From NCBI GenBank assembly GCA_964586255.1, contig CAZPGE010000001.1:133907-197906 (forward strand): 64,000 bases of DNA. The letters run 5' to 3'. The DNA comes from an uncultured Candidatus Saccharibacteria bacterium (lineage in GTDB: Bacteria > Patescibacteriota > Minisyncoccia > Phycocordibacterales > UBA2100). A program made the translations under genes and the position numbers. This document shows, one piece after another, positions 9,577-51,326 of the stretch (its first letter is position 1; every line of letters begins with the position of its first letter). The notes under the pieces were generated by a model that had not been told where the DNA came from, searched no databases, and worked only from the letters and a program-made list of their open reading frames with translations.

Positions 9577-9612
9577 CTCCAGTAAATTCACCAATTGGTG
9601 TATTTACAGGAG
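9577..9612. promoter_or_regulatory. 36-bp near-palindromic operator candidate (copy A) upstream of dnaK: CTCCAGTAAATTCACCAATTGGTGTATTTACAGGAG
   Basis: Imperfect inverted repeat centred on CCAATTGG. Nearly identical copies at 10244..10279 and 51291..51326. About 100 nt upstream of the dnaK ATG. Confidence 0.6.
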
Positions 9613-9636
9613 CGATAGGTTCATTGTAGTCAGAGA

Positions 9637-10218
9637 TTACAGCAAGTCAAATTCTTTCAGGAATCGACGTGCGTCATTTATCTCCTCAGCTACCACATAG
9701 CGGACATGCTCGTCGACTCCGTACCACTTTGCGACTGTAAGTACGTGCTCGTAGCACTCGTGCGGGTAGATAAACACCGAACGCTGATACATCTTCAGCC
9801 CAAAGTCCTCAAGTTTGAGCCGAAAAGACTGGCGCACCGCCTCGTTGCTGCTCGGCAAGTCAAACATGACAATCCGCCATTTGCGGTCCCATCGGCGAGG
9901 CGTATCGAGCGACATTTCCCATATGGCGTCTTCGTGCAGCTGCTTACGACCGGTATCCGTAAGGTGTACGTAGGTATGCGTCCCCTTCTCTTCAAACGTA
10001 AGCTTGTTTTTGCTTTCGAGATACTTAAGCGCCTTCCAAATGCGATTGCGTTCTCGCGGACTTTTGGGATCAAAGATGTCGATAAGCTGTATGGCGTTGG
10101 GCGCCATGGCGGCTCCTGCAATGATGACGCCCGCGCCGACTAGGCGCAGGATATCCTTGGTGAGCTCCCCGCGCCTGTACTCGGCGGCCGTCTTGATGCC
10201 TTTGAATCTTGTTCCCAT
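9637..10218 (-). CDS. PaaX-like transcriptional regulator (winged HTH plus PaaX-type middle domain), lacks PaaX C-terminal domain; sits between grpE and dnaK
   Basis: 194 aa from MGTRFKG... N-terminal wHTH-like segment ...RNRIWKALKYLESKNKLTFEEKGTHTYVHLTDTGRKQL. Then WDRKWRIVMFDLPSSNEAVRQSFRLKLEDFGLKMYQRSVFIYP, matching the PaaX WDGKW...GF... region (recalled from memory). Confidence 0.55.
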   Translation of the reverse strand: MGTRFKGIKTAAEYRRGELTKDILRLVGAGVIIAGAAMAPNAIQLIDIFDPKSPRERNRIWKALKYLESKNKLTFEEKGTHTYVHLTDTGRKQLHEDAIWEMSLDTPRRWDRKWRIVMFDLPSSNEAVRQSFRLKLEDFGLKMYQRSVFIYPHECYEHVLTVAKWYGVDEHVRYVVAEEINDARRFLKEFDLL

Positions 10219-10243
10219 ACGTCGAACATAGCATCCTTTCAAA

Positions 10244-10279
10244 CTCCAGTAAATCAACCAATTGGTGGAAATACAGGAG
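10244..10279. promoter_or_regulatory. 36-bp near-palindromic operator candidate (copy B), 26 nt upstream of the PaaX-like regulator start and overlapping its putative -35 (TTTACT-N17-TATGTT)
   Basis: CTCCAGTAAATCAACCAATTGGTGGAAATACAGGAG. Same CCAATTGG core and CTCCAGTAAAT / ATACAGGAG arms as copies A and C. Confidence 0.6.
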
Positions 10280-10311
10280 TCGACATGTCTCAACGCGGCG
10301 TAGATATTGCG

Positions 10312-10854
10312 CTAAGCTTTTATTATCACCTGCGCGGGTCGTAACACTCGATCACCCACACGGTACCCATACCGTAGTATGCGAACGATGTCGCCGGATT
10401 TGCCCGGAGCCTCTGCAAGCTCCTGGATTGCGTCATGCACATGCGGATCATAGGCATCCCCCACTTCCCCAAAGCGGCTTACGCCATGACGGCGTAGACC
10501 TTCGATAAGTTGGTTGCGCACGTTCTCCATTCCTCCGCGCCAGACACTGTCGGTTTTTTCCCACGCATCTCCTGACATTGCCATATCAAAACTGTCGAGC
10601 GCAGGAAGAATGTCTTCGACAATGCCTTCGAGTTTCCGCTCGGCGTGGCGTTCGGCCTGGAGCATCAAATCCTTCTTTGCGTTGACGGAGTCCGCCTTGC
10701 AGCGTTGCCATCCATCGAGGTACTCCTGACGTTCGGATTTCGTCTTCTCTAGCTCGTCGCGCAATTTTTGCATCTTAGCCTTTGCGGCACCGAGTGAACC
10801 CATCTCATCCTCGGGCTCGAAATCGATATCCTGATCTTCGCTGTGCGCATTCAT
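10312..10854 (-). CDS. grpE: Nucleotide exchange factor GrpE
   Basis: 180 aa; acidic N-terminus, coiled-coil, GrpE C-terminal beta domain. Lies upstream of dnaK/dnaJ. Confidence 0.9.
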   Translation of the reverse strand: MNAHSEDQDIDFEPEDEMGSLGAAKAKMQKLRDELEKTKSERQEYLDGWQRCKADSVNAKKDLMLQAERHAERKLEGIVEDILPALDSFDMAMSGDAWEKTDSVWRGGMENVRNQLIEGLRRHGVSRFGEVGDAYDPHVHDAIQELAEAPGKSGDIVRILRYGYRVGDRVLRPAQVIIKA

Positions 10855-10946
10855 GACGGAGCGAGTATATCATTTCGCAGTATGAAAACGCAAAAGACCT
10901 GTTTCGGGGCCATTTACTGCTTGGGATATCGCATGCATCACGGATA

Positions 10947-10972
10947 CATTGCGAGCCGTCGCTCGCAATGTT
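10947..10972. promoter_or_regulatory. Inverted repeat ACATTGCGAGC-cgtc-GCTCGCAATGT upstream of the grpE promoter
   Basis: 11-bp perfect arms with a 4-nt spacer. About 50 nt upstream of a TTGCGT-N18-TATACT promoter-like element that ends 9 nt before the grpE ATG. Confidence 0.35.
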
Positions 10973-11021
10973 CCGCGACCCCGCCTCGCAGACCTCGCCT
11001 GGAAGCTCGGTCGCTCCGGCC

Positions 11022-11070
11022 GTCCAAGCGATAGAAAAAAGCCCCACTGGGGCTTTTTTCTATCGCTTGG
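11022..11070. terminator. 47-bp near-perfect palindrome (CCAAGCGATAGAAAAAAGCCCCACTGGGGCTTTTTTCTATCGCTTGG); bidirectional terminator or protein-binding site
   Basis: GC stem flanked by an A6 tract on one side and a T6 tract on the other. Located between rpsI and grpE. Confidence 0.5.
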
Positions 11071-11159
11071 ACCACTCGTGGTACTGGGAAACCCACGGTT
11101 TTCCCATTCCTTCCTCCACGGGGAACCTGCTGGTTCCCCGACCCCCTCCTCCCTCAGTT

Positions 11160-11196
11160 AAACAAAAGATGTCCCGCAAGGGACATCTTTTGTTTT
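11160..11196 (-). terminator. Rho-independent terminator of the ribosomal-protein/rpoA operon (after rpsI)
   Basis: GATGTCCC-gcaa-GGGACATC hairpin flanked by an A tract and a T tract. Immediately downstream of the rpsI stop on the minus strand. Confidence 0.65.
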
Positions 11197-11201
11197 CAAA
11201 G

Positions 11202-11597
11202 CTAGCGCTTTGACCACTGAGGGGCACGGCGTGCGCCCTTAAGACCGAACTTCTTGCGCTCACGTGAGCGAGGGTCGCGCTTGAGGAAGCCTCGTACCTT
11301 GAGGTCCTTGCGCTGCTCGGGAACGAGTTCAATCATGGCGCGGGAGATGCCAAGGCGGATTGATTCAGCCTGGGCCTTCTTACCGCCGCCCGATACCTTC
11401 GCGGTAACAGCGTATGTCGCACCGAGCGCTTCGAGCGCTTCGTACGCTGTCTTCATCATGATGGCGAGCGGAAAGTACTCCTTTGCGTCCATGCCGTTGA
11501 CCTCCATAGAGGTGCTCTTAGCGGGCGTGATTCGCACACGTGCAGTCGCTGTCTTGCGACGGCCTATTGCTTCAGTGTATCTGCTAGAGGTAGCCAT
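11202..11597 (-). CDS. rpsI: 30S ribosomal protein S9
   Basis: 131 aa; C-terminal ...KKFGLKGARRAPQWSKR is uS9-like. Confidence 0.93.
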   Translation of the reverse strand: MATSSRYTEAIGRRKTATARVRITPAKSTSMEVNGMDAKEYFPLAIMMKTAYEALEALGATYAVTAKVSGGGKKAQAESIRLGISRAMIELVPEQRKDLKVRGFLKRDPRSRERKKFGLKGARRAPQWSKR

Positions 11598-11601
11598 ATA
11601 A

Positions 11602-11955
11602 TTATTCGGTTACGATAAGATTCTTCATACGCGCGGTTCGCATCGTGTTGTTAGGAAGCATGCGCTGCACGGCCCTGCGAACAGCCTCTCCGTGCCCTTT
11701 GCGTTCATTGAGGTGCGCGAGTGACTCTTTCTTCTGACCTCCCGGGTATCCGGAATACGTCGTGTAGATAGTGCTCTTTCGCTTTCGCTCGCGCGAGTAG
11801 ATCTTGCTTGTGTTGACCACGGTCACCACCACTTCGGACCGGATGTGTGGTGTGTAGCTCGCAAGCGTCTTGCCCATGAGCATCTTTGCCGCCTCAGAAG
11901 CTACTCTTCCGAGAGTTCTGCCCGCAGCGTCAATTGTGAATGTTTTCTGTTCCAT
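11602..11955 (-). CDS. rplM: 50S ribosomal protein L13
   Basis: 117 aa uL13-like; immediately upstream of rpsI. Confidence 0.9.
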   Translation of the reverse strand: MEQKTFTIDAAGRTLGRVASEAAKMLMGKTLASYTPHIRSEVVVTVVNTSKIYSRERKRKSTIYTTYSGYPGGQKKESLAHLNERKGHGEAVRRAVQRMLPNNTMRTARMKNLIVTE

Positions 11956-11964
11956 ATACTGAAG

Positions 11965-12324
11965 TTATTTCTGGACGAATTCGATACGTGCGCTTTCACC
12001 AACACGCTTCCCGATGCGGCCAAGCTTCACGATGCGTGTGTAGCCACCTGCGCGGGTCTCAAAGCGCTTCGCGAGCGTGTCATGCAGCTTCTTCACCGCG
12101 TCCGGTGCGCCACCGAGGTGAGTCGATACATCTCGGCGCGATGCGACGGAGTTTTTCTTGCTCGTCGTAATAAGCCGCTCAATGAATGGCCTAAGCTCCT
12201 TCGCTTTTGCGACCGTGGTCGTAATACCCTCTTTCAAAACGAGAGAGCGCGCGAGAGACCGAAGAAGCGCTGTGCGCTGTCTGCGGTCGCGATTCAATGT
12301 TCTTTTGTTAACGTGATGCCTCAT
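11965..12324 (-). CDS. rplQ: 50S ribosomal protein L17
   Basis: 119 aa; MRHHVNKRTLNRDRRQRTALLRSLA... is bL17-like. Confidence 0.93.
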   Translation of the reverse strand: MRHHVNKRTLNRDRRQRTALLRSLARSLVLKEGITTTVAKAKELRPFIERLITTSKKNSVASRRDVSTHLGGAPDAVKKLHDTLAKRFETRAGGYTRIVKLGRIGKRVGESARIEFVQK

Positions 12325-12330
12325 ACAAGA

Positions 12331-13308
12331 TTATTGGGTGCGGAGCGTAAGGCCAAGATTGGAGAGCGCGCGTTTGATGTCCTGCAAGCCCTTCTGGCCG
12401 AGACCCTCGATAGCCAGGAGATCGTCCTCGCGCTTTCTCACGAGACCTCCGACAGTGCGGATAGATGCGTTGTCGAGCGCATCTTCGACGCGCTGCGGAA
12501 GACTAAGCTCAGTGATGCGCGTCTTGAGCATCTCGGAATCCATAGGGATTGACTTGTCCTCACGTGATGCAGAGCGCGCGTCAGAGATGGCAGGAATATT
12601 CATGTCTGCGGTGTCCTCTTCCTTAAAACCTACGACCGCTTTGAGCTGGTGAATCATCGTCTCGATAGCGCGCTCTAGAGCTTCTCGAGGCGCAAGCGTC
12701 CCGTCTGTCTCGATGAGAATGCGGAGGCGGTTGAAGTCGGTGCGATCACCCACGCGCATGTTCTCTACCTCGTAGTTGGCGCGGCGAATCGGTGAGAATA
12801 TCGCGTCGAGCGCAATCGTGCCGATATCTACGCGCTCTTTCTGATGTTCCTCCTTCGGGATGTAGCCCAATCCGCGCTCTGCGCGAATTTCCAGTTCAAA
12901 GTTGACCTTGCTCGTGACTTCGGCAATGTGCTGCTCCGGGTTCAGGATTTCCACTTGACCAGGAAGTTTAAGGTCGGCCGCCGTGACTGTCTGAGGACCT
13001 TTTACTGAGAGAGTGATTGTCTGTGGCTCATCAGAAAGCAGCTTGAAGCGCATCTTGCGGATGTTGAGGAGGATGGTGACCACGTCTTCCTTGACACCTT
13101 CTATGGTCGAGAATTCATGGGCAACACCAGGGATTTTGACATGCGTAACAGCTGCGCCCGGGAGAGACGAGAGGATGATGCGGCGAAGGCTGTTGCCAAG
13201 CGTGAATCCGTAGCCCGGGTAAAGACCGTCGATTTCGTACGTACCGCTGCGTTCGGATTCCGTGACGACGCGGGGCTTTGAAGGCAATGCGATGTGGTAG
13301 TCGGACAT
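12331..13308 (-). CDS. rpoA: DNA-directed RNA polymerase subunit alpha
   Basis: 325 aa; N-terminal dimerisation domain, C-terminal alpha-CTD (...RTVGGLVRKREDDLLAIEGLGQKGLQDI...). Confidence 0.95.
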   Translation of the reverse strand: MSDYHIALPSKPRVVTESERSGTYEIDGLYPGYGFTLGNSLRRIILSSLPGAAVTHVKIPGVAHEFSTIEGVKEDVVTILLNIRKMRFKLLSDEPQTITLSVKGPQTVTAADLKLPGQVEILNPEQHIAEVTSKVNFELEIRAERGLGYIPKEEHQKERVDIGTIALDAIFSPIRRANYEVENMRVGDRTDFNRLRILIETDGTLAPREALERAIETMIHQLKAVVGFKEEDTADMNIPAISDARSASREDKSIPMDSEMLKTRITELSLPQRVEDALDNASIRTVGGLVRKREDDLLAIEGLGQKGLQDIKRALSNLGLTLRTQ

Positions 13309-13359
13309 ATAGATATTGCGACGCTAATAACGAATAATAATGGGATTAAAAACGCGAGT

Positions 13360-13968
13360 TTATCTGCTGTAGAACTCGAAGACCGTCGCGTAGTCAAGTC
13401 CGGTTTCGACCGTCGTGTATGACGGCTCACCGGTGACTTCGGCCTTGAGTGCATTCATATCGACCTCGAGCCAGCTTGGCACAGAGCGTCGCCCCTCTTT
13501 CTCCTCCGCAAGTCCTGCAAAAAGTGGGCTCGTGCGGCTTCCCTGTCTGACCGAAAGCACATCTCCCTTCTTAAGCTGATGTGAAGGGACTGTTGTGCGG
13601 CGACCGTTGATGGTGATGTGACCATGGCTGACCATTTGGCGAGCAGCACGACGCGTCGTGGCAAAGCCTGCGCGGTAGACAGCGCTGTCGACACGAAGCT
13701 CAAGTGCTTTGTGGAGAGCCGACGACGGGTCGGCCGCTTCGAAGGCCTTTTCCGCGTAATTCGAAAGCTGTCTTTCTGCGAGACCGTATGTGTAGCGCAC
13801 ACGCTGTTTTTCGAGGAGCTGCTTTCCGTAGTCAGAGCCGCCGCGACCGCGCTTCACTTTCTTTTCGCCGCGAGCTGCAGAGAGCGCAAATTTCTGCGTC
13901 TGAAGCTGCTCGAAAACGCCGACACCGAGGCGCTTGCCGATCTTGTACTTTGATTTTACGGGTAGCAT
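13360..13968 (-). CDS. rpsD: 30S ribosomal protein S4
   Basis: 202 aa; MLPVKSKYKIGKRLGV... with S4 RNA-binding domain. Confidence 0.93.
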   Translation of the reverse strand: MLPVKSKYKIGKRLGVGVFEQLQTQKFALSAARGEKKVKRGRGGSDYGKQLLEKQRVRYTYGLAERQLSNYAEKAFEAADPSSALHKALELRVDSAVYRAGFATTRRAARQMVSHGHITINGRRTTVPSHQLKKGDVLSVRQGSRTSPLFAGLAEEKEGRRSVPSWLEVDMNALKAEVTGEPSYTTVETGLDYATVFEFYSR

Positions 13969-14003
13969 AAAAAGACGTGTAATTTAGTAACTATGTATCT
14001 GGT

Positions 14004-14438
14004 CTATACGCGGCGAGGCTTCGGAGGTCGAGGGCCGTTGTGCGGAACCGGTGTATCGTCGGCAATGCGCGTTATGTCGATTCCTTTCCCTGCAAAGCCG
14101 CGCAATGCAGATTCGCGCCCTGCTCCTACGCCGCGGATAACGACATCAACTTCCTTTACACCAATGATGACCGCCTTGTCGCCCACAAGCTCACCCACCT
14201 TTGCAGCTGCAAACGGCGTGCCCTTCTTGGCGCCTGAGAACCCAATGCTTCCTGATGAAGACCACGCGATTGCGTTGCCGTTTTTGTCGGCTAGAAGAAC
14301 TTTCGTATTGTTGTACGTGGCGTGTACGTGAAGCGTACCAGCTGTAATGTTTTTCTTTGCGGTGCGCGCCAAAGAGCGTGACTTCAAGCCCGCGTCTACA
14401 GTGCCTCCTGATTTTCGGATGATTCGTTTCTTTCCCAT
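14004..14438 (-). CDS. rpsK: 30S ribosomal protein S11
   Basis: 144 aa uS11-like (...TPFAAAKVGELVGDKAVIIGVKEVDVVIRGVGAGRESALRGFAG...). Confidence 0.92.
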   Translation of the reverse strand: MGKKRIIRKSGGTVDAGLKSRSLARTAKKNITAGTLHVHATYNNTKVLLADKNGNAIAWSSSGSIGFSGAKKGTPFAAAKVGELVGDKAVIIGVKEVDVVIRGVGAGRESALRGFAGKGIDITRIADDTPVPHNGPRPPKPRRV

Positions 14439-14447
14439 AGATATCTA

Positions 14448-14828
14448 TTATGTTTTCTCTAGCTTACGGCGACCGCTTGTCATCGTCTTTCGGACGTTGC
14501 CACGCACCGTGCGCGAGTTCGTCTTAGTACGCTGACCGCGAGCAGGAAGTTTGCGCAGATGTCTCGTACCGCGGTGTGCCTTGATATCTTTGAGGCGGCG
14601 AATGTTACCGCTAATCTGGCGGCGCAATTCGCCTTCTATAACGTTTTTTTCGATCGCATCGCGAAGTGCGGACTCTTCCTGCGCCGAAAGATCCTTCGGC
14701 CTCTTACCGCCATCAATCTTGAGAACCTCAAGAGTCTTTTGCGCGCGAGGTCGTCCGACGCCGTATACGGCCGTAAGGCCAATATCAAGGCGCTTCTCTT
14801 CGGGTATGGTGATTCCTGCAATACGCAT
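14448..14828 (-). CDS. rpsM: 30S ribosomal protein S13
   Basis: 126 aa; MRIAGITIPEEKRLDIGLTAVYGVGR... is uS13-like. Confidence 0.93.
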   Translation of the reverse strand: MRIAGITIPEEKRLDIGLTAVYGVGRPRAQKTLEVLKIDGGKRPKDLSAQEESALRDAIEKNVIEGELRRQISGNIRRLKDIKAHRGTRHLRKLPARGQRTKTNSRTVRGNVRKTMTSGRRKLEKT

Positions 14829-14849
14829 AATGATTGTACAAAAAAATGA

Positions 14850-14963
14850 TTAGCCCTGACGCTGTTTGTGGCGTGGATTTGAGCAAATGACCCAAAGTCG
14901 ACCACGTCGTTTGACGTGGCGGCAATGCATGCAGATTTTTTTAACGGAAGCCTTAACCTTCAT
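14850..14963 (-). CDS. rpmJ: 50S ribosomal protein L36 (small gene absent from the ORF track)
   Basis: My own minus-strand translation: [37 protein letters not shown], with the C-x2-C-x12-C-x4-H zinc ribbon. Sits between rpsM and infA as in the canonical operon. Confidence 0.85.
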
Positions 14964-14974
14964 GGGTGTTTTAG

Positions 14975-15181
14975 TTAGATGCGCCGAGTGATGCGCGCAC
15001 GACCCCCATAAGGATCTAGCTGCAGCTGCACACGATCGCCTACGAGTACCTTAATTCTGTGCAGTCGCATCTTTCCCGCGAGGTACGCAAGTACCAGCTC
15101 TCCAGATGCCAGATTGACGCGAAAGAGCGTGTTTGGGAGCGCCTCCTCGACGACTCCTTCTACGACCTCTGTGTCAGCCAT
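14975..15181 (-). CDS. infA: Translation initiation factor IF-1
   Basis: From the internal Met: [68 protein letters not shown], an S1-like OB fold typical of IF1. Confidence 0.9.
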
Positions 15182-15224
15182 ATCTGCGCGGCCTAGAATA
15201 GCAGCAACTGTGGAGCGCGTCAAG

Positions 15225-16601
15225 CTACTCCGCGATTTCGGGGCTTTCGACCTTTATTTGGATGTCCGCAGGGTCCTCAGGAAAGGTACTTTTCCAGAAC
15301 GGTTCAATACGTGCCGTGGCCTCTTGTATGGAAGGTATGCCAGCTACGACAGGCTCGAACGCACTCTTGTCTTTACCCGCCAGCGCCGCCTGCAATTCTG
15401 CTTCATCGATCTTCCAAACGAGCGTCGCCGAGCCAGACACTGAGAATCGGATAGGGCCCGCGCCGAGCACCGTCGATGTCCCGACGGGCTGTGCGCCAAA
15501 TCCCGCACTTGGAATCAAATCGATCCCGTCAGCATCGACAATGGTGACTGCGCCACCGCCCACGCCCGCAGCAAACGCGCCGTCTTGGAACACCGGAATC
15601 TTTATACGAGCTCGCTGATGGATGCGCACACCTCCACCAGCCTCTGTTGTGTTTGGAAGGCTCTCGTATTCAATTTGCGTCAGACCAGAGAAGGTCACGT
15701 GTGACGCATCGATCTGAGCTGCGGCTTCGCGCGCTTTGGTCTCCAGACGCGCCCTGACAGCCGCTATCGCATTTTCGAGAGCTCCTGCGGCAACACCTGG
15801 TCGTTCGCCTACAAATCCTCCTGTGAACGATTCAGTGGACTCTGCGTATACCTGCGCATACATAGCGGGTGTTGATTTGAGCCCGGGGACGGTGAATTTT
15901 CCTGGCGCAACATTGTATTGCTCGCCAGGCTGATCTGCTACGACGGTAATCTCAATCTTGCCCGGCGTATTTCCCTGCTTCGCAGGGACCACGATGTCTG
16001 CGGGAGCTCGAAAGACATGCCCAGACGCACTGGCAAAGCGTGTATTTTTAACAAGCTTGAGCGGGGTCGTCTGGTAATTGTTGTATATCGTAATATTGCC
16101 CGTGGCTTTATCTTCGCCATAGACCACCCCCTCACTCGGGACCACTTCAGAATCTTCCAACTCAACGGATTGCACCGAATATTCGAGTGTTCCAAGTCCG
16201 GTACCTTCTGGGTCCGCAGAAAATGTCTCATCTGTAAATGTCAGCGCGTGGGTTCGGGGCTGAACCGTGACCCTCGTCGGTCGCATAGAGACAAATATCA
16301 ATGCTGCGAGGAGGAGCACACATATTGCCGCAATACCCCACATCACGTACTGACCCGACGAGCGACCCCGAGGTGTTGGTCCCAGGTTAGTCGGGTATTC
16401 CCGCGTGTCCTCAAACGTACGGGGTCGGGACCTTTGCGGCGGCGCAATATCGCGAATAGACCTTGTGCCCGCATCTATGCGGGGATTATTAATTGGTATG
16501 TGGGTCACCTCATCATTCGCGGATTCATCGACTGGACGAGCCGATGAAGAGTGGTGACTCTCATCCGGTGGAACGATGTCTTGAAAATAGTCTTTAGCCA
16601 T
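15225..16601 (-). CDS. Hypothetical single-pass membrane protein with a large extracytoplasmic domain, appended to the infA/ribosomal operon
   Basis: 458 aa. About 90-aa charged, Pro-rich cytoplasmic N-terminus, one TM (YVMWGIAAICVLLLAALIFVSM), then ~340 aa Gly/Ala/Thr-rich extracellular region. No recognisable catalytic motif. Confidence 0.5.
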   Translation of the reverse strand: MAKDYFQDIVPPDESHHSSSARPVDESANDEVTHIPINNPRIDAGTRSIRDIAPPQRSRPRTFEDTREYPTNLGPTPRGRSSGQYVMWGIAAICVLLLAALIFVSMRPTRVTVQPRTHALTFTDETFSADPEGTGLGTLEYSVQSVELEDSEVVPSEGVVYGEDKATGNITIYNNYQTTPLKLVKNTRFASASGHVFRAPADIVVPAKQGNTPGKIEITVVADQPGEQYNVAPGKFTVPGLKSTPAMYAQVYAESTESFTGGFVGERPGVAAGALENAIAAVRARLETKAREAAAQIDASHVTFSGLTQIEYESLPNTTEAGGGVRIHQRARIKIPVFQDGAFAAGVGGGAVTIVDADGIDLIPSAGFGAQPVGTSTVLGAGPIRFSVSGSATLVWKIDEAELQAALAGKDKSAFEPVVAGIPSIQEATARIEPFWKSTFPEDPADIQIKVESPEIAE

Positions 16602-16637
16602 GAGAATGGATTATATCACTGGAGGTACGCAACGATT

Positions 16638-17780: not shown

Positions 17781-17870
17781 TCACAATCAGTATACCTCGT
17801 GATATATACCGCTCATCACACGCATGCATGTGCAACTGGATATCTGCCAGCAATTTGGTTGATACATCGC

Positions 17871-26028: not shown

Positions 26029-27057
26029 TTAGTAGTACCGCAGCTTGTTTGCCTGGTGGCACGAGTGTGTCTTGCAGAAATGCGTTACTCCTCTGAGGTC
26101 GGCCATAAAAAACAGGTAATCCGTCTTTGCAGGCACGGCGGCAGCAACAATAGCGTCGAGCGACGGACTGCCAATTGGGGTTGGAGGAAGTCCTTTGTTT
26201 ACATACGTATTATACGGCGAGTCACTCGCAAGATCGTCTTTCGTGAGCTCGAACGTACCCTTACCAATCGTGTAGAGAAATGTCACGTCCACCTGCAGGG
26301 CCATATCTTTCTTGAGTCGATTCCACAACACGCTCGAGATTTTACGGCGCTCCTCGGGATTTCGAGCCTCACGCTCTATGATGGAGGCAAGCGTAATGAT
26401 ATCGGAGAGCGGTTTACCTGATGCGTCGATATCGACCTGTATGGTCGCTATATGCGCGTCGAAATTCTGCCGCATAGTCTGTATCACCGTATCTTCCGTA
26501 GCATTGGGAAGGAAGAAATATGTGTCAGGGAAAAGATAGCCCTCCATAGGCTGCGCTTGCGCAAGGAAATTCTCTCTGTTGAATCTCTGTAGTCGCGTGC
26601 CAAAAATAATCGCCATATCTTTTGTGGTGGCACCTTCGGCGACTCGAATACGAATTGGTTCAAGTCCAAATGCGCCGGTGGACATAGCTCGCGCGATAGC
26701 GAAAATATCCTTCGGCTCTTTAAATAGATAATCGCCCGCACGCACATTTCTTTCGTCGCCGAAAATCATTATGAGTGCTTTAAATGCAATTGGAGAATGT
26801 ATGACGCCTTGCGCTTCAAGCTCAAGCGCAATTTCCGACACCGATGTCCCGCTTGGCACTAAGACGAGCTCGCCAATAGGAAAGTTGGCGGGCGGTTGTA
26901 TCAACGCAATGTATGCATAGATGGCGATAGCACCTCCGACGACCAGCACAATGAGTGAGCGTCGATTTGTGTGCACACGCCATTTCTCAGAAAGCCTGTT
27001 CTGGAAATCATCGAGAGCACCAAAAAATCCCCGGACTTTCGGTTCGAGTGGAGGCAT
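26029..27057 (-). CDS. mltG: Endolytic murein transglycosylase MltG (YceG-like)
   Basis: 342 aa; N-terminal TM, YceG motifs ...YLFPDTYFF..., ...LASIIEREA... Confidence 0.88.
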   Translation of the reverse strand: MPPLEPKVRGFFGALDDFQNRLSEKWRVHTNRRSLIVLVVGGAIAIYAYIALIQPPANFPIGELVLVPSGTSVSEIALELEAQGVIHSPIAFKALIMIFGDERNVRAGDYLFKEPKDIFAIARAMSTGAFGLEPIRIRVAEGATTKDMAIIFGTRLQRFNRENFLAQAQPMEGYLFPDTYFFLPNATEDTVIQTMRQNFDAHIATIQVDIDASGKPLSDIITLASIIEREARNPEERRKISSVLWNRLKKDMALQVDVTFLYTIGKGTFELTKDDLASDSPYNTYVNKGLPPTPIGSPSLDAIVAAAVPAKTDYLFFMADLRGVTHFCKTHSCHQANKLRYY

Positions 27058-31210: not shown

Positions 31211-31810
31211 ATGGACCCCATCGATAGACTGTCACGAATATTTGAGCGTTTTCCCGGCATCGGACCACGGCAGGCGAACAGATTTGTCGCATACATACTG
31301 AGGAGTACCCCGGCCCTTCGGCGAGAGCTTGTCGACTCGATACAACAGCTCTCAAGCGGCGTCAGGCAGTGCGATGAGTGCATGCGCTATCATGCGGGCG
31401 AGCATAAGGTGTGCAGCATATGCGCGCACCCAGAACGCGACCCCTCATCGCTCGCGGTCGTCGCTTCGGACTCAGACTTAGCCGCGCTAGAAAGAAGCGG
31501 CACGTATAGAAGCATGTATTTCGTACTTGGCGGCACAATTTCTCTCGCATCGGAAAAAGCTACCGGTCTTCGCATAGATGCGCTGCTTTCCTCTCTCCCG
31601 AGGCGGATAGAGCACGGACTCAAGGAGGTGATCCTTGCATTCCCGGCCAACCCAGAAGGTGACGCCACGACCACGCGCGTGCGCGAGGATATTTCGGAAC
31701 ACGCCCCAACGCTGCGCATTACGGCGCTCGGTCGCGGCCTCTCCACGGGGAGCGAGCTCGAGTACGCCGACCCGGAGACTATCAAGAGCGCGCTCGACTC
31801 CCGACGCTAA
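31211..31810 (+). CDS. recR: Recombination protein RecR
   Basis: 199 aa; HhH N-terminus, C4 zinc finger CDECMRYHAGEHKVCSICAHPERD, Toprim domain. Confidence 0.93.
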   Translation: MDPIDRLSRIFERFPGIGPRQANRFVAYILRSTPALRRELVDSIQQLSSGVRQCDECMRYHAGEHKVCSICAHPERDPSSLAVVASDSDLAALERSGTYRSMYFVLGGTISLASEKATGLRIDALLSSLPRRIEHGLKEVILAFPANPEGDATTTRVREDISEHAPTLRITALGRGLSTGSELEYADPETIKSALDSRR

Positions 31811-40884: not shown

Positions 40885-40885
40885 G

Positions 40886-40958
40886 TGGACCCTAGCGGAT
40901 TCGAACCGCTGACATCCACATTGCAAATGTGGCGCTCTACCAACTGAGCTAAGGGCCC
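40886..40958 (-). tRNA. tRNA-Ala (anticodon UGC); CCA not encoded
   Basis: Reverse complement GGGCCCTTAGCTCAGTTGGTAGAGCGCCACATTTGCAATGTGGATGTCAGCGGTTCGAATCCGCTAGGGTCCA: G3:U70 Ala identity pair, GTTCGAATC T-loop, anticodon loop TTTGCAA. Confidence 0.9.
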
Positions 40959-43736: not shown

Positions 43737-43778
43737 CGTGCGAGTATACTAGAGCCCTCTTCCACCACCCACAAGTCT

Positions 43779-43876: not shown

Positions 43877-43975
43877 GGACGCCCCCACTATCCACAGCTA
43901 CGTTGCGTTTGACGCGTCGTAATCGAGGTCTATACTGCTGTTTTAATGACCTCCAAGAAGTGCCCGCAGATATAC

Positions 43976-44036
43976 AGCCCGCTTGGGGCTATTTTTTTGT
44001 CATTTTTTCATCCCGCCTCGAGCGGGGTTTTTTCTA
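43976..44036 (+). terminator. Two tandem intrinsic terminators (AGCCC-gcttg-GGGCT + T8; CCCGC-ctcga-GCGGG + T6) ending 1 nt before the carA ATG; candidate attenuator
   Basis: Hairpin plus U-tract pairs on the plus strand, with no upstream plus-strand gene. Confidence 0.5.
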
Positions 44037-44037
44037 T

Positions 44038-45096
44038 ATGCGCTTAATACTCGAAGACGGCACGGTGTTCGAGGGCACAGGCTTCGGCGCACCTACTTCA
44101 AGCGCAGGAGAGGTGGTCTTCTCAACCGGTATGACCGGCTATGTTGAGTCGCTGACCGACCCATCGTTCGCCGGGCAGATTCTTGTCTGCACCTATCCAC
44201 TTATAGGCAATTACGGGGTACCCGACGCATCGAAGTTTGAGTCAAGTCGCATGCACATTAAAGGCCTCATAGTTTCGGAGTATTCGAATACGTACTCCCA
44301 TGGAGAAGCCAAGGAATCACTCGATGCCTGGCTCAAGCGCTCGGGAGTACCCGCGATTCAAGGAATCGATACGCGCGCTCTTACCAAGAAGCTTCGTGAG
44401 CGCGGCGTTATGCTCGGCCAAATCGTAGACACAGAGCCCGGTGAATTCATCGACCCCAACAGAGAAAACCTCGTCGCGAGTGTCTCGCCAAAAGACGTCC
44501 GCACATACGGCAGTGGTCCGCTGCGCATACTCGCCGTCGACTGCGGCATGAAGGAAAACATCGTACGCGCTCTCACGAGACCGGAGACGACCGTCATACG
44601 AGTGCCCTGGAATTTTGATTTCGCGCGTGAGAGATACGACGCGATTGTGCTCTCCAACGGCCCGGGTGACCCTGAAATGTGCGACGCGACGGTGGTCAAC
44701 ATACGAAAAGCCATGAAGGAGCGGAAACCTATTTTGGGCGTGTGTTTGGGCAATCAGCTGCTCGCACTCGCCGCTGGCGCATCGACATACAAACTCAAAT
44801 ACGGACATCGTGGGCAAAATCAACCGTGCATAGACGCAGATAGCGGGCGCTGCTACATTACCTCGCAAAACCATGGTTTTGCCGTCGACGCATCCACGTT
44901 ACCGACAAGTTGGCGTGTCTGGTTTACCAACGCCAACGACGGCTCCGTCGAAGGTATTCGCCACACGTCGCATCCATGGCGCTCTGTACAGTTCCATCCC
45001 GAAGCCTCGCCCGGCCCTACCGATACCGCATGGATATTTGATGACTTTCTGAAAGAGCTCACCGTACACAGACGGATTCACGTAACTCATATATGA
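44038..45096 (+). CDS. carA: Carbamoyl-phosphate synthase small (glutamine amidotransferase) subunit
   Basis: From MRLILEDGTVFEGTGFGA...; GATase class I with catalytic Cys in LGVCLGNQLL and His/Glu near the C-terminus. Confidence 0.92.
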   Translation: MRLILEDGTVFEGTGFGAPTSSAGEVVFSTGMTGYVESLTDPSFAGQILVCTYPLIGNYGVPDASKFESSRMHIKGLIVSEYSNTYSHGEAKESLDAWLKRSGVPAIQGIDTRALTKKLRERGVMLGQIVDTEPGEFIDPNRENLVASVSPKDVRTYGSGPLRILAVDCGMKENIVRALTRPETTVIRVPWNFDFARERYDAIVLSNGPGDPEMCDATVVNIRKAMKERKPILGVCLGNQLLALAAGASTYKLKYGHRGQNQPCIDADSGRCYITSQNHGFAVDASTLPTSWRVWFTNANDGSVEGIRHTSHPWRSVQFHPEASPGPTDTAWIFDDFLKELTVHRRIHVTHI

Positions 45097-48000
45097 CGAA
45101 ATCCTTTCAAGACAACCACGAGCGCGAGACTGCTTCTTCCGGCGTGTCTCGCAGCGCGTCGTCTGCCGACCCAAGACATCGAGAGGCAGCGCTGCGCGAG
45201 CACGCGCAGACAGCGACGCCGAAGAAGCTGCCTCGTCGAGTTCTTCTGCTCGGTTCCGGCGGGCTCAAGATCGGACAAGCCGGTGAGTTCGACTATTCGG
45301 GCTCGCAGGCAATAAAGGCACTCAAGGAAGAAGGAATCGAGGTAGTACTCATGAATCCAAACATCGCGACTGTACAAACCGATGAAAAGCTCGCCGACAC
45401 CGTCTACTTCCTGCCGCTTACACTCGCTTTCGCGACGGGCGTTATAGAGAAAGAAAAGCCCGACGCCATCTTCTTGAGCTTCGGGGGCCAGACCGCTCTC
45501 AACCTTGGCCTTCAGCTGGAAGAAACGGGAATACTCAAGAAACACGGAATCGCCGTGCTTGGCACTCCCGTATCCACCATTCGTGATACGGAAGACCGCG
45601 ACCTCTTCATCGCCCGCCTGAGCGAAATCGGCGTACAGACGGCGAGGAGCAAGGCTGCACGCGCTGTCCAAGAAGCGCTTCGGGCCGCAAAGGAAATCGG
45701 ATTCCCCGTGATGCTGCGGTCAGGATTTGCTCTCGGAGGGGAAGGCTCTGGCGTCGTCAAAAATGCTCAGGAGCTCACCGACAAACTTACCGAAGTCTTC
45801 CGCAACGTGCCCCAAGTGCTCGTCGAGGAGAATCTCGGGGGTTGGAAAGAGGTGGAATACGAGGTCGTGCGCGACAAGGCGGACAATTGCATCACCGTCT
45901 GCAACATGGAAAACATTGACCCGATGGGCATCCACACTGGCGAATCTATCGTCGTCGCTCCATCACAAACGCTCTCCAATCGCGACTACCACATGCTTCG
46001 TGAAGTAGCGATTAAGACCATTCGGCACCTCGGCATTGTCGGCGAGTGCAATATTCAGTACGCGCTGCATCCCACTTCGGGCGATTACCGCGTGATCGAA
46101 GTGAACGCGCGTCTTTCCCGCTCTTCCGCACTCGCATCAAAAGCTACGGGGTATCCTCTCGCGTTCGTCGCGGCAAAGCTTGGCCTCGGATACACGCTGA
46201 CTGAGCTTAAGAACTCGGTGACAAAGAAGACGACCGCGTGTTTCGAGCCCGCGCTCGATTATGTGGTCCTCAAGATGCCGCGATGGGATCTCGCAAAATT
46301 CGAGAATGCCGCCACGAGAATCGGTACGGAGATGAAAAGTGTGGGCGAAGTCATGGCGATTGGCCGAAGCTTCGAGGAAGTGCTTCAAAAAGCAATTCGC
46401 ATGCTCAATACCGGCGCACAAGGATTCACCACACAGAAGAACGGTGCCTTCAACGTGGCCAACTATCGCAAAGAAATTCATGAGCCAACGACGCGCCGCA
46501 TCTTTGCTTTGGCGCAGGCGCTGCGCGACGGCGTAAGCATCGAGCGCATACATCAGCTCTCTAAGATTGATAGGTGGTTTCTCTCGAAGATGGAGAACAT
46601 TATTGCTATTGAAAAGCGCCTCAAGCGCGGGCGCCTCACCAAGGAGCGGATTCTTGAGGCAAAGCGTGCAGGATTCTCTGATGCGCAGATTGCCACACTT
46701 ACGAAGTCTACCGAGCTCAAGGTGCGCGCCTTGCGCAAGAAGCTCGGGGTACTACCGAGTATTAAACAAATCGACACGCTCGCCGGCGAATTCCCCGCTC
46801 GCACCAACTACCTGTATGTCACGTATCACGGCACCGAACACGACGTCGAGCGCGGTGACAATCAAATGGCTGTACTCGGCTCCGGACCATACTGTATTGG
46901 CTCTTCCGTGGAGTTTGATTGGTCGTGCGTTCAGGCACTTAAGACACTGAAGAAGGAGGGATACGACACCATCATGATCAACTCCAACCCGGAAACGGTC
47001 TCTACTGATTACGACATGTCGGATCGGCTCTACTTCGAAGAGCTGTCACTAGAGCGCATCCTCGACATCGCCGAATTCGAGAAGCCAAAGGGCCTCATGA
47101 TTTCAGCGGGTGGGCAGATACCCAACAATCTTGCACTGCCGCTTCACAAGTGCGGCCTGCCTATCTTGGGTACCTCACCTGAAGACATCAACAGAGCTGA
47201 GGACCGGCATGTTTTTTCCAAAATGCTGGACAAGCTTGGCGTCGACCAGCCCGGATGGGCAGAACTGAGCACGCTCGCGGCTGCTCGTAAGACAGCGAAA
47301 AAGCTCGGTTATCCTGTCCTCGTCAGACCTTCCTACGTTCTCTCGGGAGCTGCTATGAGCGTCGCGTACGACGAGCCGTCGCTTGTGCGATTCCTTCGCA
47401 AGGCCGTAAGTATCACCAACGACCATCCCGTGGTCATATCGAAATATATTGAGAACGCTCGCGAAATCGAGATAGATGGTGTAGCTAAAAAAGGCAAACT
47501 TGTCGTCTATGCAATCACCGAGCACGTCGAAAATGCAGGCACACACTCAGGCGACGCGACAGTGGTATTGCCGCCGCAGCGCACCTATCTCGAAACAATC
47601 CGCCGCGCCAAACAGGCAGCAAAACATATCGTTAAGGAGCTCAACATCACGGGCCCTTTTAACATCCAGTTTCTTGCAAAGGATAACAAGCTGCAGGTGA
47701 TTGAGTGCAACGTACGCGCTTCGCGCAGCTTCCCTTTCGTATCGAAAGTTACCGGATACAACTTTATAGATATCGCGACGCGCGCGATTCTTGGTCGCGA
47801 TGTCTCAGGCGAATACCATACCGTCGAGCTCGATACGGTCGCTGTAAAGTCGCCGCAATTTTCGTTTAATCGTATCAAGGGCGCGGACCCTCGTACAAGC
47901 GTGGAAATGGCATCTACGGGTGAAGTGGCATGCTTTGGTGACTCATACGCGGAAGCGCTCATCAAGTCCATGATGGCTGCGGGATTCCGTCTGCCTCGGA

Positions 48001-48401
48001 AAAATATCCTGCTGTCACTCGGAGGCGAGGAACATAAGGTGAAGCTACTTCCGGCACTCAAGAATCTATACGCGCTTGGATTTAACTTCTACGCCACCGA
48101 ACACACGGCCGACTTTCTTTCGGAACACGGCATGCGTAATAAAAAGGTATACAAACTTCATCAGAGGAAAAAGCCCAACGTCGCCGAATTACTCCACTCC
48201 GGGGAGCTGGACCTCATCATCAATATTCAGCAGCGCGCACTCAAGCCTTCGCAGGATGGTTTTGCGGTACGCAGAAAGGCGATAGATATGAATATTCCTC
48301 TTATTACAAACCGGCAGCTCGCCGAGGCGTTTATCCTCGCACTCTGTGAACTCAAGGAGATGCCTGCACCCAAAGCCTGGCACGAGTACAAAAGCGAATA
48401 G
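45093..48401 (+). CDS. carB: Carbamoyl-phosphate synthase large subunit (with ~45-aa N-terminal extension)
   Basis: 1102 aa; duplicated ATP-grasp halves, MGS-like C-terminal domain. Start overlaps the carA stop (ATGA). Confidence 0.93.
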   Translation: MTKSFQDNHERETASSGVSRSASSADPRHREAALREHAQTATPKKLPRRVLLLGSGGLKIGQAGEFDYSGSQAIKALKEEGIEVVLMNPNIATVQTDEKLADTVYFLPLTLAFATGVIEKEKPDAIFLSFGGQTALNLGLQLEETGILKKHGIAVLGTPVSTIRDTEDRDLFIARLSEIGVQTARSKAARAVQEALRAAKEIGFPVMLRSGFALGGEGSGVVKNAQELTDKLTEVFRNVPQVLVEENLGGWKEVEYEVVRDKADNCITVCNMENIDPMGIHTGESIVVAPSQTLSNRDYHMLREVAIKTIRHLGIVGECNIQYALHPTSGDYRVIEVNARLSRSSALASKATGYPLAFVAAKLGLGYTLTELKNSVTKKTTACFEPALDYVVLKMPRWDLAKFENAATRIGTEMKSVGEVMAIGRSFEEVLQKAIRMLNTGAQGFTTQKNGAFNVANYRKEIHEPTTRRIFALAQALRDGVSIERIHQLSKIDRWFLSKMENIIAIEKRLKRGRLTKERILEAKRAGFSDAQIATLTKSTELKVRALRKKLGVLPSIKQIDTLAGEFPARTNYLYVTYHGTEHDVERGDNQMAVLGSGPYCIGSSVEFDWSCVQALKTLKKEGYDTIMINSNPETVSTDYDMSDRLYFEELSLERILDIAEFEKPKGLMISAGGQIPNNLALPLHKCGLPILGTSPEDINRAEDRHVFSKMLDKLGVDQPGWAELSTLAAARKTAKKLGYPVLVRPSYVLSGAAMSVAYDEPSLVRFLRKAVSITNDHPVVISKYIENAREIEIDGVAKKGKLVVYAITEHVENAGTHSGDATVVLPPQRTYLETIRRAKQAAKHIVKELNITGPFNIQFLAKDNKLQVIECNVRASRSFPFVSKVTGYNFIDIATRAILGRDVSGEYHTVELDTVAVKSPQFSFNRIKGADPRTSVEMASTGEVACFGDSYAEALIKSMMAAGFRLPRKNILLSLGGEEHKVKLLPALKNLYALGFNFYATEHTADFLSEHGMRNKKVYKLHQRKKPNVAELLHSGELDLIINIQQRALKPSQDGFAVRRKAIDMNIPLITNRQLAEAFILALCELKEMPAPKAWHEYKSE

Positions 48402-48630
48402 GAAATTAAAAACCCCCGAACTCGACTACGCATACTAGTACGCGCAATAGTCTCGGGGGTACGCTACGCAACAACGATACAAGAACTTTTACATCCCGAT
48501 ACACTACGCGGGTGTGAAGTGCCGATTCCCACACTTCCTCACAGTCACATACACCGGGCCGGAAGGCACCAAGCCGGGTCATATGCACCGTGGTAGCCCA
48601 GGCAGTTTTATACCACGGCACAAGCCAGCG

Positions 48631-51261
48631 TCAATCCCGCTTGCCCTTGGCTTTCTTCAACATCTTCTTGAGGTAGTACCCCGTGTGAGAGCCCTCCGTA
48701 CGCGACACTTCCTCCGGTGTGCCCTTTGCTACAATCTGACCGCCGCGCTCCCCACCTTCTGGCCCCATGTCGATAAGATAATCTGCGCACTTGAGTACAT
48801 CGAGGTTGTGCTCGATGACAATTACCGAATTGCCCTTGTCGACGAGCTTCTGCAAAATGTCGATAAGCTTTGCGACGTCGTCATAGTGAAGTCCCACCGT
48901 CGGCTCGTCGAGCAAGTAGATGCTTTTGGTGATGTGGGGGCGGTACAGCTCCGATGCGATTTTTACACGCTGCGCTTCCCCGCCGGAGAGCGTGGTCGCG
49001 CTTTGGCCAAGTTCGAGATATGAAAGACCGACGTCTGCGAGAGAGCGTAGGCGATCCGATATCGCCGGTATGTCGTCGAAAAACTTCAACGCTTCTTCTA
49101 CCGTCATCGAGAGCACATCGTGAATGCTCTTCTTCTTGTACTTCACTTCGAGCGTCTCTTTCATAAAGCGTTTTCCGTTGCATACATCACACGTGACGTA
49201 CACCGTCGGCAAGAAATGCATCTCAACAGCCACGAGGCCGTTGCCTTGACACGCCTCACAGCGACCGCCCTTTACGTTGAATGAGAATCTGCCGGGTCCC
49301 CATCCGCGAGCGCGACTCTCTTCGCTCATCGCGAACATATCGCGGATGTGCGTCCACGCACCGGTGTACGTCGCAGGATTGGAGCGCGGTGTGCGACCGA
49401 TTGGTGACTGGTCGATAAGAATCGCGCGTCCAAGGTATTCAGTACCCGTAAATTCCTTCACATTGTACGTCTTGGCCGTCCGAAATCGCTTGTCGAAGCG
49501 CGCCTGCAGATTGCGGTGAAGCAGTTCGTAAAGAAACGTCGATTTACCGGAGCCAGACACACCGGTGATACCTACGAGCTTACCGAGTGGAATATCGGCA
49601 TTGAGATTTTTGATGCTAAATTTGTTGCCTCCGCGAATCTTTATCTTTCCTTTGTCTGCCGTGCGGCGTTTGTCAGGTACTGGTATCTCGGTCTCCTGAC
49701 GCAAGTATGAGAGCGTACGCGAGCCAGACTTATTGGTCTTCGCCGTAAGAAGCTCCTCGAGCCAACCTGCGGCCACAATGTTGCCTCCGTGCGTACCTGC
49801 GCCGGGTCCGATATCGACGATGTAGTCAGACGCATAAATAGTATCTTCGTCGTGCTCGACGACGATTACTGTGTTACCGAGATCGCGCAGATGCTTCAGC
49901 GTATTGATAAGTTTGTCGTTGTCTCGCTGGTGAAGTCCGATGGTCGGCTCGTCGAGTACGTAGAGCGCCCCGACGAGGCCGCTTCCAAGTTGCGAAGCAA
50001 GGCGTATGCGCTGCGCTTCACCACCGGAGAGCGTGTTGGCCTTTCTATCGAGGGTGAGGTATTCGATACCCACGTTGAGCATAAACTGCAGGCGACTTGT
50101 AATCTCCTTGATTACCTGGCGAGAGATATCCTGCTCCTTCTTGCTGAGCTTCAACTGATTGAAAAACGTCATCGCGTCTTCTATCGAAAGGGCGGCGAGC
50201 GAGACAATGCTCATGCCGGTTGCAGGCCCCTTGTGTTCGACGGGCTCATGTACCTTGCCCATGAATACGTTGAGAGCCTCGGGCCGAAGGCGTGCACCCT
50301 CACACACATCGCATGGTTCGTCGCCAAAAAAATACTTGCTACCGAGACCTTTGCACTCAGGACACGCCCCGTATGGAGAGTTGAATGAAAAAAGGCGCGG
50401 CTCAACTTCCGGGAAAGAGAATCCATCGTACGCACACATAAACTTCGCCGAGATGATGTGTGACGTACCATCGGGGTCAGTGATATGTACGAGCCCATCG
50501 CTCTCAGCGAGCGCTCGCTCTATGGCCTCGCTTGCACGCTCAAGACTTCCCTTCACATCATCGTTGAATTCCGATACGAAGATTTCATCCACGATGATGT
50601 CGATGTCGTGCCGGTCGTTCTTACCCATGACGATTCGCTCGCGAAGGGATTTCTCTTCTCCATCAACTATCGCGCGTTCAAACCCTTTGTTGAGCATGTC
50701 GTAGAGCATTTGGTAGTACTCGCCCTTGCGCCCTACCACTACGGGCGCAGAGATACGCACTTTTTCCTTCGAAACCGCCGCGGTGAGCTTTTTCTTGCTG
50801 GCGACTTTCTTGTTCTTGCTCGCCTCTTCAACTATCTCCAAGACTTTTTCAAGAATCTCTTCGTTGGTCTGCTTCTTGACCTCCCTGCCGCAAGTCGGAC
50901 AATGCGGGTGACCTATGCGCGCATAGAGCACTCGCAGATAGTCGTATATCTCGGTGATGGTCGCGACGGTCGAACGCGGATTGTTGGAGCGACTCTTTTG
51001 GTCGATAGATATTGCGGGCGAAAGACCCGTTATCTCATCGACATCGGGCTTCTGCATCTGGCGGAGGAATTGACGAGCATACGCAGAAAGTGACTCCACG
51101 TATTTTCTTTGGCCCTCGGCAAATATCGTGTCAAAAGCCAAAGACGACTTTCCGCTACCGGAAAGTCCCGTAAACACGACCATCTTCCCGCGCGGTATCT
51201 CTACCGTGACGTTCTTCAGGTTGTGCGTCCGCGCCCCTTTTATGACTATTTTATCGTCCAT
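48631..51261 (-). CDS. uvrA: Excinuclease ABC subunit A
   Basis: From [18 protein letters not shown]...; two ABC ATPase modules, zinc-finger CxxC pairs, about 877 aa. Confidence 0.95.
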
Positions 51262-51290
51262 AGTGTATCTTTTCTCTGTCTTCTGCACTA

Positions 51291-51326
51291 CTCCTGTATT
51301 TTCACCAATTGGTGAATTTACTGCAG
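51291..51326. promoter_or_regulatory. 36-bp near-palindromic operator candidate (copy C), 30 nt upstream of the uvrA ATG: CTCCTGTATTTTCACCAATTGGTGAATTTACTGCAG
   Basis: Its reverse complement CTGCAGTAAATTCACCAATTGGTGAAAATACAGGAG differs from copy A at only a few positions. Confidence 0.6.

Follow-up and report, generated by a model that had tools for sequence, protein, structure and literature searches.

HrcA of Bacillus and many other bacteria is an autoregulated heat-shock repressor whose gene lies inside the grpE-dnaK-dnaJ cluster. Its operator CIRCE (controlling inverted repeat of chaperone expression) is an inverted repeat located between the transcription start of the dnaK operon and the start codon, as well as at groESL, and when transcribed it is able to form an mRNA hairpin. 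HspR, a MerR-family protein of Actinobacteria, Helicobacter and Deinococcus, likewise has its gene in the dnaK operon, and as a repressor it controls dnaK and clpB via a different, shorter inverted repeat, HAIR (HspR-associated inverted repeat). Much of bacterial diversity belongs to candidate phyla, and very little is known of gene regulation in these bacteria; no described heat-shock regulator for them was found in the literature searched. PaaX of Escherichia coli and Pseudomonas is a phenylacetyl-CoA-responsive repressor. Its operator is TGATTC-N27-GAATCA, and it acts by steric hindrance in repressing its own promoter (PMC9493321). Here we analysed a 64-kb stretch of contig CAZPGE010000001.1 (hereafter the window), in which a 36-base-pair (bp) palindrome accompanies a gene for a PaaX-like protein of 193 amino acids (aa), situated between grpE and dnaK. 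From sequence comparison and predicted structure, we put the probability that the palindrome is the operator of this protein at roughly 70%. Conservation of the site at the regulator gene and at dnaK, its overlap with a -35 element and the co-variation of protein and site together make an autoregulated repressor of chaperone genes the best reading of the locus.

The palindrome occurs three times in the window, ahead of dnaK, the regulator gene and uvrA (Table 1), and the coordinates and sequences given in the original prediction were borne out. Its arms follow the layout CTCCWGTAA-N18-TTACWGGAG around the centre CCAATTGG. Searching the window with a degenerate 30-nucleotide (nt) pattern and up to 3 mismatches returned exactly these three sites, and none of 100 dinucleotide-preserving shuffles contained a match, so that zero are expected by chance; the palindrome is thus confined to three regions of the 64 kb, as had been claimed. 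The half-site CTCCWGTAA was found nowhere else in the window, and the core CCAATTGG recurs once, in a fourth and unrelated copy at 26171, in agreement with the earlier remark that a core near 26170 lacks the full arms. The sites end 98 nt, 25 nt and 29 nt before the start codons of dnaK, the regulator gene and uvrA, respectively. No palindrome upstream of grpE was returned by the pattern search of the window. The gene identities proposed from the reading frames (dnaK, PaaX-like, grpE, uvrA) all agreed with Pfam.

Pfam places the Cas2-like domain PF20803 (PaaX_M) at residues 108-180 of the regulator (E = 3.8e-18). The AlphaFold2 model (mean predicted local distance difference test score, pLDDT, 87) comprises a winged helix (helices 18-29, 42-48 and 54-69; wing 73-86), a linker helix and a Cas2-like ferredoxin fold. 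When this model was compared with the PDB using Foldseek, the top match was E. coli PaaX (8a39, E = 1.9e-5, 183 columns), with further matches to 3kfw (Rv0674) and 3l09. A PDB sequence search with the regulator gave nothing significant, and PaaX was found by fold comparison only. The NCBIfam model for PaaX (TIGR02277) scored 32.4 bits against a cut-off of 264.55, and Pfam gave no PaaX_C hit for the C-terminal effector domain of PaaX; the regulator ends at residue 193, directly past the Cas2-like domain. No HrcA-family domain was detected, Pfam and NCBIfam yielding PaaX_M/Cas2-like hits only. We identified 103 homologues in Patescibacteria, the source names being Kaiserbacteria, Parcubacteria, Paceibacterota or Patescibacteria. 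We assign the window itself to a Kaiserbacteria/Paceibacteria (Patescibacteria) genome. A profile search extended the group to 807 cluster representatives (E <= 1e-30) sharing the same short architecture, and the few with names, from Kaiserbacteria and Doudnabacteria, are annotated as hypothetical or 'PaaX-like'.

The gene order grpE-regulator-dnaK-dnaJ is kept in 11 related loci, and in all 11 the palindrome stands before both the regulator gene and dnaK, at regulator identities of 58-96%. An alignment of the 11 dnaK upstream regions (A3) contains only three invariant blocks, namely ATTTGAC(T), TAYAnT and the palindrome. The first two correspond to the promoter TTGACT-16-TACAAT, which attained 10 of 12 matches in a consensus promoter scan. 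In the window the palindrome begins 10 nt past the -10 box, and would span about +5 to +40 of the transcript; the gap varies between 9 and 13 nt across the aligned loci. It also lies 24 nt past the regulator stop codon. A repressor operator is typically placed in this way, and CIRCE occupies the same position. The -35 hexamer is encoded inside the conserved F-D-L-L codons at the C-terminus of the regulator, so that the end of the protein and the dnaK promoter constrain the same bases. A second promoter-like sequence, TTGCAC-17-TATAGT, is found downstream of the dnaK operator at 9541-9569 (-), and is kept only in the closest relatives (L034, L140). We had considered an activator on the strength of this hand-picked promoter, a reading which was dropped because TTGACT-16-TACAAT, upstream of the site, is conserved in 11/11 loci.

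At the regulator gene, the promoter-proximal arm of the palindrome itself supplies a -35-like TTTACT. Across nine aligned regulator upstream regions (A4) the invariant positions are the palindrome, the proximal TTTAC and, 17 nt on, a G-TA compatible with an extended -10 (TGnTAnnnT). The distance from palindrome to ATG is 25-26 nt in 8/9 of these loci, the exception being L084. The ATG follows the extended -10 by about 6 nt; the regulator mRNA is therefore probably leaderless, with the operator covering the -35. The proposal of an autoregulated repressor of chaperone genes, which was made from the window alone, is strengthened by these comparisons as a prediction.

We then looked further afield. 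One genome per species was scanned with the pattern CTCCWGTAA-N18-WTACWGGAG, giving at least 118 loci. Of the matches listed, about two thirds fall in unrelated taxa, have non-palindromic centres and are put down to chance; palindromic centres (CCAATTGG, GCAATTGC, ACAGCTGT, GCCATGGC) were confined to Patescibacteria genomes. A stricter, specific-pattern scan of metagenomes returned 14 loci. Viral contigs were considered as carriers, and their four arm matches were taken as chance because all four centres are non-palindromic. Crude open-reading-frame (ORF) calls put genes on the wrong strand in GC-rich loci, and the gene contexts on which the argument relies were confirmed with Pfam. A further palindrome whose arms fit the search pattern, perfect or near-perfect over 36 bp (CTCCAGTAAG-TCGAACATATGTTCGA-CTTACTGGAG), adjoins a SAV_6107-like HEPN gene in Protofrankia coriariae (L013, 4510-4545) and Frankia sp. 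(L078, 4522-4557). Its centre resembles the actinobacterial LexA box, and the match to the arm pattern is probably fortuitous.

Two more distant genomes, CAZGUV01 and CAYNND01, encode regulator homologues that are 44-49% identical and have the same recognition helix. Among the matches listed, all five of their sites are directly upstream of groES-groEL (twice), clpB (once) or dnaK (twice). The original prediction had put forward groEL/ES and clpB as candidate regulon members, and these sites favour both. Here the centres are non-palindromic and carry TTGC(A/G)T, with a TATACT or TAATAT box 4-8 nt past the site; the arms thus appear to be the recognised part, with the site overlapping the core promoter. 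The regulator gene in these two genomes has no flanking palindromes.

Protein and site co-vary across subfamilies at the sequence level. Proteins with the helix ERNRIWKAIKYLE are always paired with CTCCWGTAA arms. Three remote homologues, 24-33% identical to the window protein, are found outside dnaK clusters and retain the 9-N18-9 geometry; every co-varying palindrome is 36 bp long and adjoins the gene of the regulator homologue. In two of these (P0098 at locus L151, 33% identity; P0099 at L152, 32%) the helix is KKRVQESLYYLRKKK and the palindrome CGTTGTCAA-N18-TTGRCAACG. It is present on both sides of the gene in L151 (4827-4862 and 5739-5774), and past the gene in L152 (~775-810), where only the right half remains before the gene owing to the contig end. 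The third (P0100, L150, 24%) has the helix RRDQLSQTVFTLKRRR and is paired with TACCATTTTTT...AAAAAATGGTA; its palindrome, TACCATTTTTTATTCCGA / TCGGAATAAAAAATGGTA, lies 12 nt before the ATG and again 10 nt past the stop (2271-2304 and 2884-2919).

Taken together, these data suggest the following mechanism. In a dimer of the regulator, each winged-helix domain would contact one of the outer arms, CTCCWGTAA or TTACWGGAG, whose centres are ~27-30 bp apart, a PaaX-like geometry. At its own gene the site would cover the -35-like hexamer of a leaderless promoter and bring about autorepression. At dnaK-dnaJ, protein bound within the early transcribed region would block initiation or promoter escape, from the position that CIRCE occupies in Firmicutes, and the same bound protein would halt read-through from the regulator gene into dnaK. 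In related lineages the core promoters of groES-groEL, clpB and dnaK carry these same arms, pointing to a heat-shock or proteostasis regulon as the conserved core. The periphery turns over fast: it includes uvrA here and, in other genomes, recR, an ogt-like gene, pspC and lemA. To judge from HrcA and HspR, the repressor may respond to chaperone titration or may itself be thermolabile.

Table 1. Features of the window that bear on the proposed regulator and its sites (position 1 is the first nucleotide of the window).
Feature	Position	Strand	Basis and details
dnaJ	6466-7545	-	DnaJ domains (Pfam)
dnaK	7610..9478	-	Pfam HSP70, 6.8e-244; dnaJ next; with it, the proposed controlled chaperone genes
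Putative operator copy 1 (dnaK)	9577..9612	.	Pattern search; same place in 11 loci (alignment A3)
dnaK promoter (predicted)	9623..9650	-	-35 TTGACT 9645-9650, 16-nt spacer, -10 TACAAT 9623-9628
Regulator, PaaX_M/Cas2-like protein, 193 aa	9637..10218	-	Pfam PF20803
Regulator promoter (putative)	10225..10253	-	-35-like TTTACT 10248-10253, 17-nt spacer, extended -10 TGCTATGTT 10225-10233
Putative operator copy 2 (autoregulatory)	10244..10279	.	Pattern search; spacing kept in alignment A4
grpE	10312..10854	-	Pfam GrpE; upstream of regulator gene
uvrA	48631..51261	-	Pfam UvrA_inter and ABC_tran; murB and uvrB precede
Putative operator copy 3 (uvrA 5' leader)	51291..51326	.	Pattern search; lineage-specific
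Conserved uvrA upstream element	51366..51408	-	-10-like GATATAGTGC 51399-51408; inverted repeat CCAACCCCT-N10-GGGGGTCGG 51366-51393

The uvrA copy has one variant arm, CTGCAG. The palindrome is missing from six uvrB-murB-uvrA loci of relatives (L129, L130, L131, L132, L133 and L134/L135), UvrA identities among the homologues being 83-100%. One of the genomes concerned (L129) has the regulator and five other sites, and in another (L133) UvrA is 98% identical. The palindrome, with the same CTGCAG arm, is found at uvrA in metagenome contig L144, which is about 84% identical in nucleotide sequence and whose flanking leader has diverged. Retention of the arm while the flanks diverged indicates that the uvrA copy is real and under constraint in a sublineage. 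On these comparisons it is recent, lineage-specific and outside the core regulon.

Moreover, the uvrA copy does not lie in a promoter region, as had originally been supposed. A conserved upstream element (Table 1) is present in 8/8 uvrA loci compared (L129-L135 and L144); it is unique in the window and has no match in Rfam. In the six loci without the site, its -10-like box (ATATAGTGC) and inverted repeat (CCAACCCCT...GGGGGTCGG) are found shortly before the ATG. In the window the element is upstream of the palindrome, and 85-90 bp including the palindrome separate it from the ATG. The site falls in the leader, downstream of the conserved -10-like box, and from there a roadblock is all that a bound protein could form. 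The element itself could represent a structured leader RNA or be read by another regulator. A small hairpin, GAGAG-N-CTCTC at 51331-51349 (-), is located between the element and the palindrome, and its equivalent in L144 reads GGGAG-N-CTCCC, a compensatory change.

DNA-repair genes are also found behind sites elsewhere: recR in two genomes and, once, a 93-aa ogt-like gene with an O6-methylguanine-DNA methyltransferase DNA-binding domain. The recR of the window (31211-31810) has no palindrome, and the preceding ORF is only 21 nt away. Other downstream genes in relatives are pspC, lemA, tmk, mreB, and genes for a class I tRNA synthetase, a methyltransferase and a glycoside hydrolase. Footprinting across relatives therefore divides the original prediction: the dnaK site is kept in 11/11 loci, and the uvrA site is absent from six. 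The proposed link between chaperones and excision repair does not hold as a conserved regulon feature, with six relatives lacking the site and one other lineage having it, and we give a conserved link a low probability; what stands is that repair genes occur as peripheral targets elsewhere.

Several observations fit poorly with a plain operator and weigh against the reading we prefer. The regulator promoter scores under the threshold of the consensus scan, and its assignment therefore leans on the footprint. Among the matches listed, about 4-6 of ~28 non-core sites are where a promoter is unexpected: perfect copies stand between convergent genes (folA/ATP-grasp, L123, L027, thrS) and one site is 3 nt past the rnc stop codon. 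The perfect copies that either separate convergent genes or follow a stop by 3-7 nt (rnc, thrS) are at L101 2919, L123 4356, L027 823, L114 1830 and L052 5120 / L147 7693. At the remote homologues, the downstream copy in L150 and L151 faces a convergent gene, and hence is no operator for a downstream gene. Again among the matches listed, perfect palindromes make up 15/28 non-core sites vs 1/22 core sites (regulator and dnaK; p = 2e-4), an excess which suggests young copies or selection for self-complementarity. Positions 10-15 are mirror-complementary, with 86 double changes vs 40 +/- 5 in shuffles, and a hairpin or cruciform requirement would equally produce this. Finally, the Kaiserbacteria genome JACROD01 has two types of centre, CACCAATTGGTG twice (L096 5487, L123 4356) and TCGCAATTGCGA five times (L029, L041, L081, L095) among the matches listed, with no hybrids; no second regulator paralogue was found in the sequence blocks fetched from this genome. 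These features are explained in part by a symmetric dimer whose preferences differ between lineages, and the imperfection of the core palindromes by promoter overlap. Behind the features that fit poorly there may be a need for a hairpin or cruciform, or active copying of the site.

The strongest alternative is that the palindrome is mainly a dispersed repeat resembling the repetitive extragenic palindromic (REP) sequences, carried by a palindrome-gene-palindrome cassette whose winged helix-turn-helix (wHTH)-Cas2-like protein reads a hairpin or cruciform for maintenance, spread or structure, the position at chaperone promoters being secondary. REP sequences and their REP-associated tyrosine transposases (RAYT) share this layout, a single-copy gene between cognate palindromes with more copies scattered between genes and frequently at gene 3' ends; REP copies number tens to hundreds per genome and are found mostly outside promoters. 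Here the gene has cognate palindromes on both sides in Kaiserbacteria as well as in L150, L151 and L152, and the convergent and 3'-end copies and the excess of perfect non-core palindromes would follow naturally. Identical 36-mers are also found at unrelated loci, even across different genomes, and presence varies among close relatives, the uvrA copy bringing 62-85 bp of extra DNA. The Cas2-like domain retains the Cas2-type Asp ending strand 1 and a Q-x-S-V motif. Against this, copies appear few (3 in 64 kb; at least 5-7 in partly sampled genomes), no similarity extends past 36-40 bp, and the regulator has no transposase-like domain, in particular no HUH (Y1) domain of the RAYT kind. The cassette is stable between grpE and dnaK over 58-96% protein identity, and in CAZGUV01 and CAYNND01 the gene is not flanked at all and 5/5 sites listed there are at groESL, clpB or dnaK promoters, an arrangement unexpected under random dispersal. 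A larger mobile element was rejected, as similarity between copies stops within 1-2 nt of the 36-mer. Scattered non-promoter copies, named in advance as a sign against a regulon, are thus seen in a few convergent and 3'-end positions, with the core copies fixed at chaperone promoters. We regard the REP-like alternative as unlikely.

A bolder version can be set beside it. Hundreds of short wHTH-Cas2-like clusters (the 807 representatives, so far from candidate-phyla bacteria only) might each have a co-evolving, gene-flanking 36-bp palindrome that seeds perfect copies elsewhere. This would be a new self-associated module, with a REP/RAYT-like layout on a Cas2 fold, domesticated as a heat-shock switch in Kaiserbacteria. 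We consider it speculative and rather improbable. If it were true, new operators such as the copy in the uvrA leader would arise by active copying and not by point mutation.

A second alternative takes RNA as the functional entity, either a 5'-leader stem-loop that stabilises or gates the dnaK and uvrA mRNAs or a terminator or 3' stabiliser behind the regulator gene and other genes, with DNA binding unimportant. The dnaK and uvrA copies would indeed be transcribed if the mapped promoters are right, the hairpins, at predicted energies of -16.1, -12.9 and -10.1 kcal/mol (z-scores -6.1 to -3.4), would be moderately stable, and the mirror co-variation at positions 10-15 is strong. Some copies are at gene 3' ends, and one in L095 (2316-2372) has an A-run on one side and a T-run on the other (aaaaaacg-palindrome-cgtttttt), an arrangement resembling a bidirectional intrinsic terminator. 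However, the arm sequence itself is conserved, beyond pairing, over 44-96% protein identity, and position 5/32 is A-A or T-T in 14/52 sites. The regulator-proximal copy would be outside its mRNA because it is upstream of the presumed leaderless start; orientation relative to the gene is variable; and the centres in CAZGUV01 and CAYNND01 are not self-complementary and carry the -35-like TTGC(A/G)T. In the window, none of the three palindromes registered as an intrinsic terminator, the mark of which is a GC-rich stem with a T-run behind it, and Rfam returned no match at them or at the uvrA leader, the sole RNA gene detected in the window being a tRNA-Ala (TGC) at 40885-40958 (-). An RNA element also leaves unexplained why the arm sequence tracks the recognition helix. 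As the primary function it is very unlikely; a secondary RNA role of the transcribed dnaK copy, as for CIRCE, is possible. Least likely of all, at long odds, is that an unlinked DNA-binding protein reads the palindrome and the PaaX-like gene is just one target: the two centre types of JACROD01 could mean more than one reader, but three protein subfamilies each have their own palindrome of the same geometry beside the gene, the long-spaced inverted repeat agrees with PaaX, and the site keeps its 25-26 nt from the regulator ATG in 8/9 aligned loci.

Lastly, we return to the operator reading and to how the pair compares with the known systems. In function it would resemble HrcA/CIRCE and HspR/HAIR, in fold the regulator is predicted to be a truncated PaaX, and the membership tests assigned it to none of the three families. 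The likeness to HrcA, in the placement of gene and site and in the ability of the transcribed site to fold, is a functional analogy only: the protein is unrelated to HrcA, with PF20803 as its only domain, and the palindrome is 9-N18-9 and of other sequence, vs 9-N9-9 in CIRCE. Searching the window for the CIRCE consensus (TTAGCACTC-N9-GAGTGCTAA) with up to 3 mismatches gave no match, in line with the original prediction. With HspR it shares an encoding in the dnaK cluster and putative control of dnaK and clpB through an inverted repeat, and differs in protein family and motif. With PaaX it shares the wHTH and Cas2-like middle domain (8a39, 3l09) and a long-spaced inverted repeat over its own promoter, here overlapping a -35-like TTTACW. 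It differs in sequence (~17% identity), in its 193 aa without an effector domain vs 305 residues in chain 8a39, and in its neighbours, which are grpE, dnaK and dnaJ in all loci examined and not paa (phenylacetate catabolic) genes. No description of the regulator or palindrome was found in the literature searched, in keeping with the earlier view of an undescribed system, and we probably have here an undescribed heat-shock-type repressor/operator pair, built on an uncharacterised family seen only in Patescibacteria genomes. The pair of a 193-aa protein and a 36-bp site, conserved across Kaiserbacteria/Paceibacteria, is testable, with putative control of dnaK and, in relatives, of groESL and clpB. 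It would put a PaaX-type fold to use without an effector domain and extend the known heat-shock repressors (HrcA, HspR, CtsR, RheA) by a new protein family. The turnover of peripheral sites (uvrA, recR, ogt-like) and the palindrome-gene-palindrome layout are relevant to the origin and spread of operators in very small genomes. Most likely, the pair is the counterpart of the HrcA/CIRCE switch for candidate-phyla bacteria of the Kaiserbacteria type.

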